From an uncultured Chroococcidiopsis sp. (GTDB taxonomy: Bacteria; Cyanobacteriota; Cyanobacteriia; Cyanobacteriales; Chroococcidiopsidaceae), in contig CAXTYC010000021.1 in the NCBI GenBank assembly GCA_964248365.1, positions 24,412 to 88,411 on the forward strand: a stretch of DNA of 64,000 nucleotides. Direction: 5' to 3'. Positions 36,001-42,000 of the stretch are shown here, one piece after another (the first letter of the stretch is position 1; each line of letters starts with the position of its first letter). The position numbers were made by a program.

Positions 36001-39000
36001 GGCGACTTTTAGTCAGATTTATGTTTTTGGTGACAGCCTTTCGGATACTGGTAATTCGTTCAACGCTACAGGAATTCCCCCTAGTCCACCCTACTTTCAA
36101 GGACGTTCTTCTAATGGTCCAGTTTGGTCAGAATATCTAGCAGATGATCTGGGATTAACCCCCCAGCAGCAAACTAATTATGCCTTTGGTGGGGCAAATA
36201 GTGGAAGCGATAACACTTTAGTTCCTGGGTTACAGGGTTTGCCTGGATTGCAGCAGCAAATTGATAGTTACAAAGCAACACATACGTCTGCTGATCCGAA
36301 TGCGCTATATGCACTCTGGGCTGGTGCGAATGATTATCTTAGTGGTAGTACCACTAACCCTGCTGTACCAGTTAATAATGTATCAACGGCAGTGAATTCG
36401 CTGGCAGACTTGGGCGCTAAAAATATCATGGTGCTTAACTTGCCAGATTTAGGAAAGCTTCCAGGGACAAGCGGTAATACTCAAGTTTCTAGTGGTCTTA
36501 GTGCTTTGTCACAGGCGCATAACCAGGGCTTAGCAGCTAACTTCAATTTGTTGAGCCAACAATCCAACGTTAACATTATACCTGTTGATGTTAATTCTTT
36601 ATTTGAGCAGGCGATCGCCCAACCGCAGCAATTCGGTTTCACCAATGTCACTAACTCTTGCCTGACTCAAACTGGTGTATGTAGTAATCCAGACGAATAT
36701 TTGTTCTGGGACAGCATTCATCCAACAACAGCTAGTCATGAACTAGTGGGAGATTTAGCCTTTTCATCTCTAGAGTCTAAAGCTGTTCCTGAACCTGCTG
36801 CTACTTTGGGTATATTGACAATAGGAAGTTTAGGTGTCTTAGCGCTGCACAAACGACGAGTAAAGGTTTAGTTGCAAGTGGCAATTAATGATATACCATA
36901 AAAACGGCGGGTGCGGGACTTGAACCCGCAATCCCCAAGATGGTGGAGATGTTACCGATAACCCTAAATTCTTCGTCCCCTAAAGGCAAGGATTGAATCA
37001 GGGAACCCGCCATATTTTAAGAAAGCAGGGGGATCTGGGGGAGCTGGGGTAGCTGGGGGAGAGTTATCAGTGACCAGTAACTCCTGACCAGTGACCCAAT
37101 CCCAACGCCTCTAGCCCCTAGCCCCTCTTTCAGAGTTCGTCTGTCGCCAGCATCTGGATAATGCGAGGTATGCCAGGATCGAACCCTCCCAAATCCCAAG
37201 AAAGTGGATCTTTTGGATCTACGGGGGTAATTTGGTAAGGTGCAAGGGTAACATACACCGCCTTGATGTTGGGATTCACTTTTTCGCGGTACTTTGCTAG
37301 TGCTTGACACGGATGTTGATAACTATTTCCCCAGCTTTCAGAATCAGTCCAGAAGCAGATGACATCTGCCTTGAACTTGTTGTTAATCATCCAGTCGTAA
37401 GCTACAGATGCATCTGTACCGCCGAAGTTTTGGTTACTAGCTTTCTTCACAGCTGAACTGAAACTATCTTTGCGGGTAATGCCCAAGTCGCGGAAGTCAG
37501 TAGCAAAACCACGAATTATATAGTTTTTCTCGGCTTTGGCTGTAGCAAGTGCCATTGTGGTAACAATCTCACAGCAACTAAGTCCTACTGACTGCACAAC
37601 GCCGCAAGACATTGAACCAGAGACATCAACAGCGTGCATAAACACTTTGCCTGTTGGTTCTACAACGTCGAAAGACATCTCTAGTGCTTTTTCGAGGATG
37701 TCCACGATGCGGGGTACTGGTGTCCAGGTTTTCTGGCTACGTCCTAGCTTACCGCCAGACTGATAAGTCTTGAGTGCCTTGAGGACATCAATAGGGTGAA
37801 TTCGCCCTTTACGCAGATGTTCTCTGTTGTTGAGGACAGATTCAACTCGATCTAAGTTGCCACACATATTTGCAACTTGCAATACACCTAGTTCAGTCAA
37901 GGAACCAAGGTTTCGTAGCATGGCCGTAATGGGCATTTCTAGAAATAGCAACTCCCAAGCCTGCTTGTCCATTTTAGCAACGGGTGCAGCCATTTCATGG
38001 GTTAAGCGTCCTTTGGCGATCGCTTCATGCACTTGATTCGGATTTCGCTTCAGCCACTCATACCACCAAATCTGCGCCAAAGCTTCATTTGGAATTTGGG
38101 CGGGTAATTCCTCCCAGCCTTTAATTACCCACTCAAATAGCTGTTGGTGATCATAGGTAGGTGGTTTGACATGGAACAAGCGCAAAGCATCGCGGTGGGA
38201 AAAGTCTAGACGTTGCTGATATTTCAACAACTGATAAGCCAAACCTTTGACATCTTCCCTTGATAACCAACTTTTACCCGCCTCCCGTACAATTTTGCCA
38301 AATCCGCGTAGAGATTTGGTGTAGTTCAGCCATTCGTAAAAGTGGATACCAGTACGGACAACTTGTGAGAAGATTTCGGTAAAAGCTTTTTTGGCTGCTG
38401 GGGAATCTCCCATCGATAGCAGTACTAAAGCGAATATCGGCGCACTGTTGTTAATGGCGCGTCCATCGCTAGCATAGAGGATTTCTTGGGCTACACGGGC
38501 AGGATCGAGAGCGATCGCTTCTCTTAAAACCGAGACAAAATCATCTGTTAATTCCTGTTTACCAGCGTAGTATGTGCTTTTTGCTGTACCAATCAATAAG
38601 CAGCGCCGCAGCATCTGCCATATACCAGCATCAAACATGAAACCGCCAGAACGTCCCTGGATCATTTCAGCTTCCCGTCCAGGGATGGGCTGAGTTTGGG
38701 GCATACCAGTATTTTTTTTATTGAAGAATTTGTAATTCATTTGCTTTTCTCGTCCCTTTCGGGCAAAAATGAAAGATGGCAGGGCAGGAATTGAACCCGC
38801 GACCAGTGGATTAACGATAACCCTCAATTCTTCGTCCTTTGCAGGCTAGGTTGTGAACTAGTAGGGGCGGGTTTAAGAAAAATACTTGTAGCCACACAGA
38901 AAATTCAGCCAAACCCGCCCCTACCTGCCACATGAATGGTTTTGTATAGGGGTGGGTTTAATAGAGATATCTGTAGCCACACAGAAAATTCAGCCAAACT

Positions 39001-42000
39001 CGCCCCTACCTGCCACATGAATGGTTTTGTGTAGGGGTGGGTTTAATAGAGATATCTGTAGCTACACAGAAAATTCAGCCAAACCCGCCCCTACAGGGTT
39101 TTGGAAATAACTTGGTGTAGCGGGGCGGGATTTGAACCCGCGACCTCTCGAACCCTAATCGATAACCCTCATTCTTCGTCCTTTGCAGGCTAGGGAGCGA
39201 GTTTGCGGTGTAGCTGTGCTTCCCGCAAAACTCGCGTGGTGAACAAGGATGTTTTAGCGCTCTACCAAACTGAGCTACCCGCCACATAACAATTTTGGAT
39301 GTGTAGATTTTGGATTGAATTTCTCGCTACGATGCGATCGCCTAATAGTAAGTTGAAGGAATTTGGTGTGGCGAGGCGGGATTCGAACCCGCGATCAAGT
39401 TTCCTCGATACTGCTTTTCGATAACCCTCAATTCGTCGTCCTTTGCAGGCAAGGTATGAATAAAGGATGTTTTGAAGTTGCGCTTTCAACCACTCAGCCA
39501 CTCGCCACATGGATTGTTTTTGTAGGGGCGGGTTTAATAGGGATCTGTGCGGTTACACAGAAAATTTAGAAAAACCTACCCTTACAGGGTTTTGAATTAT
39601 GGTGTGGCAGGGCAGGAGTTGAACCTGCGACTTTTCGGTAAAAACCGACTACTCTTACCGATAACCCTCAATTCTTCAGCCTTTTCAGACAAGTTAGCGA
39701 TCAAGGGATTTGCTACTGAGTTACCCGCCACATAAATTGCTTTTGTCGCGGCGGGTTTAATAGGGATATCTGCGGTTACACAGACAATACCCGAAAAACC
39801 CGCACAGACAGGGTTTTGAAAATAATTTGGTGTAGCAGGGCGGGATTTGAACCCGCGTCTCCCGCGTGATAGGCGATAACCCTCAACTCTTCGTCCCTTA
39901 GGGGTCGTCCCGTTTGGGCAAGGTTTGAATCAAGGATGTTTTTGGTGTTCTGAGCCTCTAAACTACCTGCCACATAATTTTTTAACCCAAGTTGAATCTA
40001 TAAGGACTTACGCTATTTACTCCGATTAAATAGTTAGCTTTCCTATAAATTTGATATCTATTTGTTGGCTGGTTGGTCATCGGTGTAACTGCGTAAATCA
40101 TGTCTACAAAACTGATAATTTGTCTTCATGACATCTTGTACTTGGGGAGGTTCTACCTCCCCAAGCTAGTTCCCAGGCTGAGCCTGGGAACTATAAGAGC
40201 TAGGCTCAAACGAGGTTCTCTACTAGTGCAAGACTAGAAGAAGTGATTGGTGAATTGCTTTGTATTATTAATGTAGTATATGTATTATTGAATGTCAAGT
40301 AGTTGGGAAGCAAATGCGATCGCTTCCTCTACTGTCGAAATTTTGCCTTCAATTTGTGCCAATTGAATTTGCAGCAAAAGTTCGCCTACAAGGGGACTAG
40401 ATGGCAATTTCAAGGCTTGCATTAAGTATTTACCAGTAATTAGCGGTGTGGGATGAGCGATTGGATCATTGGGGGTTAGATAGCGGTTAATCAGAGGGGA
40501 AATTGCGTATTGTGACACCCCAGCCGCTAGTGCTAGCACTACTACAACACAGAAAACTACTCCGGCTGTACGAAAGAAGAAAAATTGCTCGGCTAAAGTC
40601 ATCCGTTCTGGTGCAACTGTTTGTAGTTGCGGTAAAAGTTTAAGAGTTGTAGTTACACCTTTAATTTCAGCCCGACTGTAGGTTAAATTGATTAACTCAA
40701 GTTCTGCTATTTCTGGATTTGGGTTGACAAGTGTTGCAAGTTTTGCTACAGCTAACCAAGTTGTTTTGACGGTATCGCGCACTGCTTGGCAGAGTTCTGC
40801 ACTTAGTTGAGGATAGGTTTGTGTAAGTGTGGCTGCTGCACAGTCAACGGCTGCTAGTAGAATAAGATGCGATCGCGTTGCACTGGGAAACCATGTTGCA
40901 AGTAACCCATCTTCCCAAGCAGCTTGTATCCAAGGTGTTCCCTTAGCACTACTCAGGAGATACCCTAGTTCTACTCTTACTCTTTCAGCTGCAACGTTTG
41001 CCAAAAGAGGCGCAAGCTTGCGAATAACTGAGTGTGTATCCGGTTCGATGAGAAAATTTAACTGCCCAGCTTGGCGATATGCTCGTAATAGTCGTAAGGG
41101 ATCATCTTGCAGATTTGTAGGTGATATCATCCGCAGTAAACCCTGTTGCAAATCGGCGTAACCTTGCAGCGGATCGATAATTTCTCCGGTGTGAGGGTTG
41201 TAAGCGATCGCATTAATTGTATAATCTCGTCTTTGTAAATCAGTTTCTAGGCTAGATCCTACTGCTAGAGCAAAATCAACGGTTGCGTGTTTGAATACAA
41301 CTCTGGCAATCTGCCGCTGGGCATCAAGCAAGACAAAACCAGCTTTATAATGATGAGCGATCGCATGGGCTGTCTTTACTGCATTACTTAGAAGTACAAA
41401 ATCTAGATCCAAATACTCAGATTTTCTGCCCAGTAATGCATCGCGCACTGCACCACCTACCAGGTAAGCTGGTTGTGGTAGCCATTCGAGGCTAAAACAC
41501 CAAGTTGCAGGAGATAATGCAGTTAGAGAGTTAGACATTGCAATAAAAATCAACCCAGCAGCTAACTAATAACTACCATAGGTAAGCTAAATTAGCATCA
41601 ATAGCCTCTGGAATCGGTTCTATGTGTATTTGCGTGAACTGCCATTATGTAGATCGTTGCATGACCTATCATGCAGTAGAATACCAACATCAACAGCCCC
41701 ACTTAACTGAAACACCAGATTTTGAGCCAAATGAACCCAGCATTAATGTAAACATCCGCCCTATGGAGGATGTAATCGAGATGGAATGGGATGTAGTGGG
41801 TTGTCTTAGCTTTAAACGTGAGACGGGCAAATGGGCGAAGCTGCGACCTGGTGAGTTAGTGCCTACTTGAGAGGGGCTAGGGGCTAGAAAGGGGAAAAGG
41901 GAAAAGGGAAAAAGGTAAAGGGTAAAGGTAATTCGTAATTTGTAATTCGTAATTAATCATTCTCCCCTGATTCCCCCTCTCCCCTCTCCCATTCTCCCCA

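Follow-up and report, generated by a model that had tools for sequence, protein, structure and literature searches.

The question raised by this locus is what the units between a Ro60 gene and a tRNA nucleotidyltransferase gene encode, and in which order their parts are connected. The window analysed here is a stretch of 64,000 nucleotides from an uncultured Chroococcidiopsis sp. (contig CAXTYC010000021.1, positions 24,412 to 88,411), and all coordinates below count along it. We consider it probable that the units are genes for Ro60-associated Y RNAs, homologous to YrlA, which have the ordinary connectivity of a tRNA and in which a Ro60 module replaces the anticodon arm.

Genes of the locus

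Two open reading frames, ORF 40285-41553 and ORF 37130-38827, accompany the units; both lie on the minus strand, as do all six units. ORF 37130-38827 encodes Ro60 (Rsr), with TROVE and vWA_Ro60 domains and a full-length match to NF041674 (Rsr) that scores under the family cut-off. The true start is likely the ATG at 38740, inside this frame, which gives a coding sequence of 536 aa (37130-38740, minus strand). Upstream of Ro60 lie units 1-4, which are intact, and the degenerate unit 5; unit 6 is located downstream.

The other frame (40285-41553, minus strand) codes for a class II tRNA nucleotidyltransferase of 422 aa (Pfam PolyA_pol, PolyA_pol_RNAbd and tRNA_NucTran2_2). An earlier note on this DNA had named it the CCA-adding enzyme, an assignment we do not follow: it is probably a housekeeping enzyme of the CC-adding type. 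The genome has only two PolyA_pol genes, this one, with a short loop ahead of the RRD motif, and a second, whose whole length matches the A-adding family. Orthologues are present in 61/61 genomes of the order, and the gene adjoins Ro60 in only four of 81 loci. Since the enzyme is universal and housekeeping and so seldom Ro60-adjacent, the link implied by the title of the earlier note is weak; the gene is best treated as a neighbour of the Ro60/Y RNA system.

Six tRNA-shaped units

The covariance model of this analysis, R1, whose seed included units 1-4 and left out units 5 and 6, matched in the window exactly the six minus-strand units that had been reported before. No copies of the units were found elsewhere in this genome. 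ARAGORN again identified no tRNA in the spacer, its sole tRNA in the window being tRNA-Gly (54784-54855). With Rfam at the E-value threshold we obtained the same figures as reported earlier, namely a tRNA match of 38.8 bits with an 83-nt insert (39368-39507), a YrlA match of 35.6 bits (gathering 69) that begins at the T arm of unit 3 and extends as far as the unit 4 D arm (39240-39408), and tmRNA-like 3' ends (two matches of 22.7 and 17.3 bits; gathering 47). Folding z-scores of single units are modest (-1.6 to -3.8).

Unit 1 (39828-39973, minus strand; R1 112.3 bits) consists of an 8-bp acceptor stem, with G1-C72, U2-A71 and G3.U70 among its pairs, a D arm, a central Ro-type arm whose distal hairpin is duplicated, a T arm and ACCA. 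Unit 2 (39600-39731, minus strand; R1 93.1 bits) has an 8-bp acceptor, a central arm with GCUGAAG, a variable hairpin, a T arm and ACCA; its D region is truncated, leaving the D stem without a 3' strand. Unit 3 (39364-39508, minus strand; R1 117.4 bits), which accounts for the Rfam tRNA match of 38.8 bits, contains an 8-bp acceptor, D arm, central arm, variable hairpin and T arm and ends in ACCA; position 7 of its acceptor is an A-U pair, compensated inside the unit. Unit 4 (39113-39285, minus strand; R1 104 bits) combines an 8-bp acceptor (G3.U70) with a canonical D arm, a T arm and ACCA, and its central arm carries an inserted 38-nt hairpin, of which an identical copy exists on contig C4.

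Unit 5, the leader (38772-38931, minus strand; R1 76.6 bits, outside the seed), has no CCA, and its end lies 36 nt upstream of the Ro60 ATG. It retains the acceptor, the distal hairpin, GACGAAG, the T arm and, of the central helix, the 3' strand; the 5' strand of that helix and the D arm have given way to an 85-nt hairpin repeat. The unit is degenerate, as noted earlier. Three tandem 85-nt repeats, each composed of an acceptor 5' strand and a spacer hairpin, are present between units 4 and 5 (38856-39103, minus strand), and related single spacer hairpins lie at 39517-39594 and 39740-39817. The 85-nt repeat is confined to this array, with no dispersed copies in the genome. Unit 6, the trailer (36900-37013, minus strand; R1 56.4 bits, outside the seed), has a 7-bp acceptor (GGCGGGU/ACCCGCC), a central Ro-type arm, a variable hairpin and a T arm followed by a U run; it has neither a D arm nor CCA.

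In units 1, 3 and 4 the acceptor stem, D arm and T arm follow one another in the order of a standard tRNA (RF00005). The anticodon arm, a stem with a 7-nt loop in RF00005, is replaced by a module of 60-100 nt, which comprises a 10-11-bp helix (AUCCUUGAUUC / GAAUUGAGGGU), a distal hairpin of 3-4 bp, GACGAAG and an invariant GGGUUAUCG. Some details of the earlier description needed revision. The acceptor stems, given there as 7 bp, close with 8 pairs in units 1-5, and the D arm ascribed to every upstream unit is found in units 1, 3 and 4, but not in unit 2 (no D stem) or unit 5 (replaced). The T arm is present as described, but the motif GGTTCRAWTCC fits only four of the six units and GGTTCRANTCC is the form that fits. 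Four of the five upstream units (units 1-4) do end in genomic ACCA.

Unit classes in relatives and the Ro60 leader

The comparison with relatives covered the best 80 loci of 348 relatives, mostly Nostocales and not independent of one another. At E <= 0.001, R1 gave 367 matches from 81 sources, and among the matches listed 300/300 are on the Ro60 strand. Three kinds of unit can be distinguished, namely CCA-encoding array units, a leader joined to the Ro60 mRNA, and a trailer. CCA is encoded by 89/103 distinct array units versus 3/70 leaders and 1/63 trailers; the leader class and the 63 distinct trailer units thus both occur in relatives. For comparison, at most two of the 42 tRNA genes of this genome encode CCA. 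Kinship with YrlA shows in GGRTTAYC, present in 232 of the 236 distinct units, and in U8, present in 234. Of the 236 distinct units of relatives, 88 have the strict motif GNCGAAN0-1G and 220 a relaxed form; in the window the motif is exact in units 1, 4, 5 and 6 and one base off in units 2 and 3. Eleven further genomes from nine other cyanobacterial families all possess units of 85-137 nt upstream of Ro60, with acceptors that close within the unit. Promoter-like sites (5 versus 7.2 in shuffles) and terminator-like sites (4 versus 5.4) showed no excess.

The Ro60 5' UTR deserves attention. The element UUGCCCGAAAGGGACG (38751-38766, minus strand), which ends 10 nt before the ATG, is a copy of the units' distal hairpin together with the beginning of the GNCGAA motif. 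Its core is found in 80/81 loci, 10-12 nt before the Ro60 start (at 12 nt in 77), and in 213/236 units, with 0 occurrences in the far flanks; among distinct UTRs the stem is GCCC/GGGC in 48 and GCCU/AGGC in 16. Because a Y RNA hairpin and the first part of the Ro60 motif are thereby repeated beside the ribosome-binding site, this sequence pattern suggests autoregulation, in which Ro60 may repress its own translation.

The same arrangement could be read as a sign that the units are mainly cis-acting, i.e., processing or stability signals of the Ro60 mRNA, a tRNA-like punctuation at which RNase P and RNase Z would cut, and not Y RNAs acting in trans. The position of the leader directly before the Ro60 5' UTR (a UTR conserved in 80/81 loci), that of the trailer after the stop codon, and the lack of encoded CCA in both classes agree with such a role. 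We nevertheless regard it as unlikely, as it leaves unexplained why 1 to 5 further CCA-encoding array units are retained upstream and gives no account of the module of GGGUUAUCG and GNCGAA-like motif that every unit shares with the Ro60-bound YrlA of other phyla.

Acceptor stems pair within units

According to the published reading, the functional RNA would be a circularly permuted YrlA spanning two units: it would start at the GNCGAA strand of one unit, take in that unit's T arm and a long closed 'acceptor' formed by the spacer, and finish in the following unit with its D arm and 3' helix strand, while the RNA's own 5' and 3' ends would make the Ro60-binding stem. The Rfam YrlA model aligns in just that two-unit manner; in locus L053 Rfam yields no YrlA match at E <= 1. 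Chen 2014 (PMC4201824) likewise places YrlA candidates, with 'longer acceptor stems', 100-500 nt upstream of cyanobacterial Ro60. In the window, the acceptor strands of neighbours are almost interchangeable (cross-unit pairing, counted by eye, is 8/8, 7/8, 8/8 and 7/8), and the minimum-energy fold of a unit 3 + unit 4 transcript forms a cross-unit acceptor helix. With stems this similar and a fold that crosses units, the topology is undecidable from the window alone, and its support comes mainly from relatives.

Topology was counted over 81 Ro60 loci, where the Ro60 strand carries 279 instances of the T-arm pattern, the opposite strand four and shuffles eight. For 265 of the 279 T arms a perfect 7-bp acceptor complement lies 40-260 nt upstream, inside the same unit, compared with 34/279 for which one lies <=220 nt downstream, in the next unit; the chance rate is 9/280. 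The acceptor 5' strands were picked by complementarity, so the within-unit 7/7 is partly by construction, and it is the upstream-versus-downstream comparison and the chance control that are real tests. At the 68 distinct junctions of neighbouring units, cross-unit pairing reaches 7/7 in 15, 6/7 in 34 and <=5/7 in 19, i.e., a perfect cross-unit stem is possible at 15 and impossible at 53. As many as 49 different acceptor pairs occur, UGGCGGG, GGAUGGG, GUGGGGU and GUAGAGG among them, and every one finds its complement in the same unit.

A structure-free alignment gave the same picture. We aligned 23 diverse units (<85% alike) with MAFFT, fitted to no structure, in contrast to the model-fitted alignment behind the earlier pair counts. 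RNAalifold independently recovered the acceptor, D and T stems and the distal hairpin. A structure of 31 pairs has 95.6% of its cells paired, versus 53% or less when slid, and 20/31 pairs change on both sides; the observed values were reached by 0/500 shuffles. Together these two independent tests support the unpermuted, open-acceptor topology proposed earlier, with acceptors that pair within units and not between them.

Several features of the arrays also sit badly with a permuted RNA. An acceptor 5' strand opens the arrays and a 3' strand closes them, the trailer closes on itself with no adjoining unit as pairing partner, and the central helix of each unit is capped by its own conserved hairpin. 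The conserved CCA after the acceptor 3' strand would have no role inside a loop, and the acceptor 3' strand of a unit would be transcribed before the 5' strand of the next exists. We therefore hold the permuted form to be improbable for these loci. An origin as tRNA pseudogenes in decay, or as a tRNA-derived repeat lying beside Ro60 by chance, is very improbable indeed: the tRNA finders are silent, units 2 and 5 are damaged, and hairpin repeats have inserted in unit 4 and in spacers, but all helices show compensatory changes, the module is kept in 232/236 distinct units, place and strand relative to Ro60 are constant in 81 loci and nine further families, and the genome is devoid of copies elsewhere.

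Proposed function

From the architecture of these genes and its conservation, both observed directly, we infer how Y RNAs of ordinary connectivity might be made and used. The row would be transcribed on the Ro60 strand, with the 5' and 3' ends of each unit forming its own acceptor stem, alongside a T arm always and a D arm mostly. tRNA-processing enzymes could then release the units, RNase P generating the 5' ends, and the 3' ends of array units would be trimmed back to the encoded CCA; leader and trailer, which resemble ordinary cyanobacterial tRNA genes in having no CCA, would be cleaved behind the stem, after which CCA could be added. The central module is the putative Ro60 binding site, and the tRNA-shaped body may offer a tRNA-binding partner a stable point of attachment, a role already suggested for YrlA and Yrn1. 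With the last upstream unit fused to the Ro60 mRNA, the hairpin copy in the UTR may let Ro60 repress translation.

Comparison with known systems

Like YrlA (RF02553; PMC4201824; Wang 2018 preprint 10.1101/312249), the units lie on the same strand as Ro60/Rsr, within 4 kb of it and in several copies per locus. They share with YrlA tRNA-like T and D arms with conserved elbow nucleotides (the D arm being absent from units 2, 5 and 6). Ahead of the T arm they have GGUUAYC, preceded by a sequence of GNCGAA type that matches the strict motif in a minority of units; GACGAAG fits GNCGAAN0-1G, which Chen 2014 (PMC4201824) ties to Rsr recognition. The two differ in connectivity. YrlA has its T arm ahead of its D arm, a closed stem-loop as acceptor and a Ro60 stem made from the RNA's own ends, whereas the units have the order acceptor-D-module-T-acceptor, an open acceptor, an encoded CCA and the Ro60 module as a closed arm at the anticodon position. 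The permuted order was not recovered (265/279 within units versus 34/279; 7/7 across units at 15/68 junctions), and 35.6 bits falls short of the YrlA gathering threshold of 69.

Table S1 of Chen 2014 (PMC4201824) already includes such cyanobacterial loci as putative YrlA, so that what we offer is a new interpretation of a known family and no new family. In the YrlA-II seed alignment (supplement 3 of the same paper) cyanobacterial rows begin with GNCGA..GAGGGTTATCG, continue through the T arm, the acceptor 3' strand with NCCA and a spacer, and go on to the next GTGGCAGG-TAGCTCAG...; just three 'acceptor' pairs are annotated. Judged by sequence, the cyanobacterial "YrlA" models of Chen 2014 are bridges over two such units.

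The processed Ro60-bound tRNA mimic of 2014 also has an open 7-bp acceptor with a CCA end and is handled by tRNA-processing enzymes. It arises from a permuted precursor cut in the acceptor loop into pieces of 82 and 65 nt, whereas each unit here is predicted to be one continuous chain with CCA in the gene. Units 1 and 4 resemble the tRNA-like domain of tmRNA in their T arm, acceptor with G3.U70, A discriminator and encoded CCA. Unlike tmRNA (RF00023), the units have no tag reading frame and no pseudoknots, only the 3' end aligns, with no match for the 5' half, and they possess D arms and 8-bp acceptor stems. The b7a-tRNA (Burroughs and Aravind 2016), as summarised in 10.1101/312249, is a predicted tRNA-like RNA of normal topology said to lie sometimes beside Rsr; it may bear on the novelty of the units.

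A further parallel in arrangement is the published tandem-tRNA ancestor model, with tandem tRNA-shaped genes in which a T arm and the next D arm resemble a YrlA. That ancestor is hypothetical, whereas the cyanobacterial rows are living examples, their anticodon arms already carrying the Ro60 module. The architecture of the units suggests that the cyanobacterial Y RNAs drawn so far as tRNA mimics in circularly rearranged form are rows of such mimics with normal connectivity.

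Locus architecture and unit structure

The Ro60 gene (minus-strand ORF 37130-38827, with TROVE and vWA_Ro60 domains) likely starts at the ATG at 38740. Five repeat units are located in the 1.5 kb between it and a minus-strand ORF (40285-41553) for a class II nucleotidyltransferase of 422 aa, and a sixth unit lies 3′ of the Ro60 stop codon. The six intervals proposed for these units in the earlier note are exactly the matches in the window of R1, a covariance model built from 23 diverse units with units 5 and 6 outside its seed. As that note had reported, ARAGORN is silent on all of them, its sole tRNA in the entire window being a tRNA-Gly at 54784-54855. 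The Rfam scores at the E-value threshold were likewise reproduced: unit 3 matches tRNA at 38.8 bits, with 83 nt inserted, YrlA at 35.6 bits (gathering threshold 69) reaches from the T arm of unit 3 to the D arm of the next unit, unit 4, and two matches are to tmRNA 3′ ends.

The acceptor of units 1-5 comprises eight pairs (GUGGCNGG / CCNGCYAC), not the seven originally described; in units 1-4 it is followed by a genome-encoded A and CCA, so that four of the five upstream units end in ACCA, as had been claimed. A D arm, formerly attributed to every unit, is present in units 1, 3 and 4 only. Unit 2 is devoid of the 3′ strand of the D stem; in unit 5 an 85-nt element in three tandem copies replaces both the D arm and the 5′ strand of the central helix; and unit 6 has a different 7-bp acceptor sequence, no D arm and no CCA. 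The proposed replacement of the anticodon arm was correct: its place is taken by a helix of 10-11 pairs capped by a small hairpin, with GACGAAG between the two and the invariant GGGUUAUCG coming next. No unit was close to any particular tRNA when compared with the real tRNAs of this genome.

Several local features deserve mention. Unit 4 carries a 38-nt hairpin insertion (window 39202-39239) that is 100% identical to C4:226848-226885, on another contig of the genome, and resembles a small mobile palindromic element. The hairpin repeat of the spacers is not a dispersed genome repeat: within the genome it is confined to this array, which contains all four of its long copies (≥50 nt). Between the Ro60 stop codon and unit 6, a short G-rich motif of 9 nt (AGCTGGGGG-like on the plus strand) is repeated in tandem at window 37024-37059. 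A scan for promoters and terminators returned sites no more frequently than in shuffles. Of 23 sequencing runs that matched the stretch, one recorded and another presumed to be RNA, none contained half of its words; the contigs of four of these runs were mostly 85-95% alike, and so come from relatives.

Within-unit versus cross-unit pairing

The acceptor strands of the window are nearly interchangeable, with cross-unit pairing by eye of 8/8, 7/8, 8/8 and 7/8, and the minimum-energy structure of units 3 and 4 folded together contains a cross-unit acceptor helix. The caveat that a transcript spanning several units could fold in the permuted way thus holds for this pair, and the topology is undecidable from the window by itself. 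We have therefore compared the Ro60 loci of the best 80 of 348 relatives with 6-kb flanks, using T arms as anchors without presupposing any topology.

Among these loci, 279 T arms with adequate flanks were found on the Ro60 strand versus 4 on the opposite strand and 8 in shuffles. A perfect 7-bp complement is located 40-260 nt upstream, inside the same unit, for 265 of the 279; the corresponding figure for a complement up to 220 nt downstream, in the following unit, is 34 of 279, and unrelated sequence gives a chance rate of 9/280. Of 68 distinct junctions between neighbours, 15 allow perfect cross-unit pairing, 34 have one mismatch and 19 at least two, and each of the 49 distinct acceptor pairs is complementary inside its own unit. 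The trailer unit, which follows Ro60 and has no neighbouring unit as a pairing partner, closes its acceptor on itself. These counts support the unpermuted topology put forward in the earlier note. In 11 further genomes from 9 other cyanobacterial families, all loci have units of 85-137 nt with within-unit acceptors upstream of Ro60.

One relative's locus (L053) was considered as a single-unit proof and dropped, since Rfam and R1 revealed two further units with unusual T loops; unit counts per locus obtained by the T-arm pattern, which is one for L053, are accordingly lower bounds. The unit at L053:5692-5864 has a GC-rich insertion of ~30 nt in its T loop, with a still complementary acceptor (GUGGGGG/CCCCCAC) followed by G and CCA.

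Covariation

The concern that pair counts had been taken from an alignment fitted to the model was addressed with a MAFFT alignment of 23 array units less than 85% alike, which is fitted to no structure. RNAalifold recovers from it the acceptor, D and T stems and the distal hairpin. Under the 31-pair structure 95.6% of cells are standard pairs, versus 45-53% with the partner slid by 1-3 columns, and covariation persists, with changes on both sides in 20 pairs; the observed values were reached by none of 500 shuffles. Changes in the central helix are mostly one-sided, so its support rests more on conservation than on covariation. No link was seen between D-arm type and acceptor-end type among the units.

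Two variants of the architecture were observed in relatives. Four units (L001:5383-5509, L002:5349-5481, L035:4863-4991 and L053:5468-5596) have a rearranged Ro-type module, in which the long helix follows the small hairpin and GNCGAAG and is closed on the 3′ side, its partner strand located after GGUUAUCG rather than before the hairpin; the Ro-type module has thus been grafted onto the tRNA body in two connectivities. Four others (L004:5563-5705, L009:5412-5553, L035:5057-5200 and L059:2951-3093) possess an additional hairpin between the D arm and the central helix, the stems of which vary yet pair (UGGGU/ACCCA, GGGGA/UCCCC, CUAGC/GCUAG).

Unit classes and the encoded CCA

Among 236 distinct units near Ro60, CCA is encoded in 89 of 103 array units (those of the upstream row), in 3 of 70 leader units, whose end lies just 5′ of the Ro60 5′ UTR, and in 1 of 63 trailer units. 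At most 2 of the 42 tRNA genes in this genome have an encoded CCA; it is therefore the CCA of the array units that is the unusual feature, and not its absence from leaders and trailers.

One of the two CCA-ended tRNA calls belongs to a tandem tRNA-like pair outside the window (C19:83933-84083), where ARAGORN places two odd, abutting tRNAs, ‘Leu caa’ and ‘Ile tat’, the latter ending in encoded ACCA. A more distant Ro60 type with a higher vWA_Ro60 profile score (L132, at G208:C31:43460-50800, and L113, L115 and L117, from other classes of the phylum) adjoins long rows of tRNA-like genes of normal length (70-87 nt), several of which end in ACCA in L132. Another locus (L129, G352:C65:23300-30600) has six upstream units of two alternating types, one ending in TCCGCTA/TCTGCTA-CACCA and the other in CCTGCCA-ATTAGGG, an alternation that resembles a duplicated two-unit block.

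Neighbouring genes

The nucleotidyltransferase is one of two PolyA_pol genes of this genome; the other, of 927 aa, has a full-length match to the NCBIfam A-adding tRNA nucleotidyltransferase, below the family cut-off. The PDB entry closest to the window's enzyme is 3wfo, presumably the Aquifex CC-adding enzyme. A short loop, as found before the RRD motif of the window's enzyme, is suggested as a hallmark of CC-adding enzymes in PMC3925840, a review that also has the split CC/A system of Synechocystis among its references. Each of the 61 genomes of the order encodes an orthologue, in most cases as a single full-length copy, and so these include the two genomes of the window's own family, neither of which has a Ro60 match. 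The gene is found in the 6 kb upstream of Ro60 in only 4 of 81 loci (built on the best 80 of 348 relatives) and in one further genome (G316). We therefore consider it a housekeeping enzyme and reject a dedicated CCA enzyme for the Y RNAs; the adjacency noted earlier exists in the window and in these few relatives, which makes for a weak link, and the position of the gene in the window may be fortuitous.

A divergent TsaB-like gene with a TsaD-family domain (42032-42637, plus strand) lies upstream of the nucleotidyltransferase. The pair recurs in two relatives' loci (L001 and L002), hence the local synteny is wider than Ro60 and the enzyme. Among the best 80 of 348 relatives, the window's neighbours recur in none (GDSL lipase) or two (TsaB) of 80 loci. 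A conserved partner gene was rejected as well: Ro60 is surrounded in L006 and L035 by dihydroorotate dehydrogenase, kinases and proteins without a Pfam match, with no repair or nuclease gene common to both neighbourhoods.

A hairpin copy in the Ro60 5′ UTR

The Ro60 5′ UTR deserves special attention. Its core, UUGCCY-N4-5-RGGNYG (window 38751..38766, minus strand), corresponds to the distal hairpin of the units together with the beginning of their GNCGAA motif. In 80 of 81 loci (best 80 of 348 relatives) it is contained in the last 60 nt before the Ro60 ATG; the distance from its end to the ATG is 12 nt in 77 loci and 10 nt in the window, and a Shine-Dalgarno-like GGGAG lies directly 3′ of it in most relatives. 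Of the 236 units, 213 contain the same core, which is absent from the far flanks. Its stem among distinct UTRs is GCCC/GGGC (48) or GCCU/AGGC (16). This UTR copy of the Y RNA hairpin is a new element. Judged from sequence, Ro60 may restrict its own translation through binding to its leader, and a hairpin copy beside the ribosome-binding site is a simple candidate for a feedback loop in Ro60 expression.

Proposed mechanism

tRNA-shaped genes with a Ro60-type module flank Ro60 on the same strand as a conserved cassette. We propose that the units would be co-transcribed and cut out by RNase P, plus 3′ processing, that the central module would serve as the Ro60 binding site, and that the 5′ UTR hairpin copy could exert feedback on Ro60. 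The tRNA-shaped body might be a stable handle for a partner, by analogy with what has been proposed for YrlA and Yrn1.

On a bolder reading, the Ro60 Y RNAs of cyanobacteria are genuinely tRNA-shaped, end in CCA and may be charged or otherwise handled by tRNA enzymes. G1-C72, U2-A71, G3.U70 and an A discriminator are the features marking alanine tRNAs and tmRNA; 61 of 72 distinct 8-bp array units combine them before CCA, and G3.U70 occurs elsewhere in this genome in the three tRNA-Ala genes only. Likewise, 14 of 17 distinct 7-bp units have the layout of tRNA-His, with G-1 paired to C73 and CCA directly following. However, G.U is common at pair 8 too (47 of 72 8-bp array units), and at pair 3 the dereplicated set has 11 units with G-C, 6 with G.U and 4 with A-U, a pattern that fits ordinary drift; in the window, units 2 and 3 have G3-C70. 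We consider this reading improbable. Were it true, Ro60 would be tethered to translation or the tRNA-quality machinery, and the rows would be a surviving ancestral state, the source of permuted YrlA.

Relation to YrlA

YrlA-class bacterial Y RNAs described so far are circularly permuted tRNA mimics without a free CCA end, and the present finding may bear on the origin of this permuted form and on the binding partner of its tRNA-like part. The table of Chen 2014 (PMC4201824) lists cyanobacteria, among them Nostoc, Calothrix, Gloeocapsa and Stanieria, in which a putative YrlA RNA lies 100-500 nt upstream of Ro60, and the text remarks on a longer ‘acceptor stem’ in some YrlA RNAs. The cyanobacterial rows of its YrlA-II seed alignment run from GNCGA..GAGGGTTATCG through the T arm, the 3′ acceptor strand with NCCA and a spacer into the next unit, and end in that unit's GTGGCAGG-TAGCTCAG... 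and 5′ helix strand; the annotation gives three ‘acceptor’ pairs only. From this order, the published YrlA reading spans two of the units described here; lacking a tRNA annotation, the units would have escaped being caught. Our literature search, apart from Burroughs and Aravind 2016 and the Sim and Wolin 2018 review, returned no description of cyanobacterial Y RNAs as unpermuted arrays, and Ro60 is not discussed in the accessible part of a 2026 preprint that covers three families of tRNA mimics.

Should the cyanobacterial genes prove to be rows of tRNA mimics with normal connectivity and a CCA end, the cyanobacterial entries of the YrlA catalogue would have to be redrawn, and RNase P, CCA-repair enzymes and perhaps aminoacyl-tRNA synthetases could be tested directly with the units as substrates. 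Like YrlA, the units have the Ro60 context, T and D arms, a GNCGAA-like motif and GGUUAYC; unlike YrlA, they are without its defining permuted connectivity and score below its Rfam threshold. They resemble the tandem-tRNA ancestor proposed for YrlA in 10.1101/312249, an origin that, with normally connected rows, would gain living intermediates open to study.
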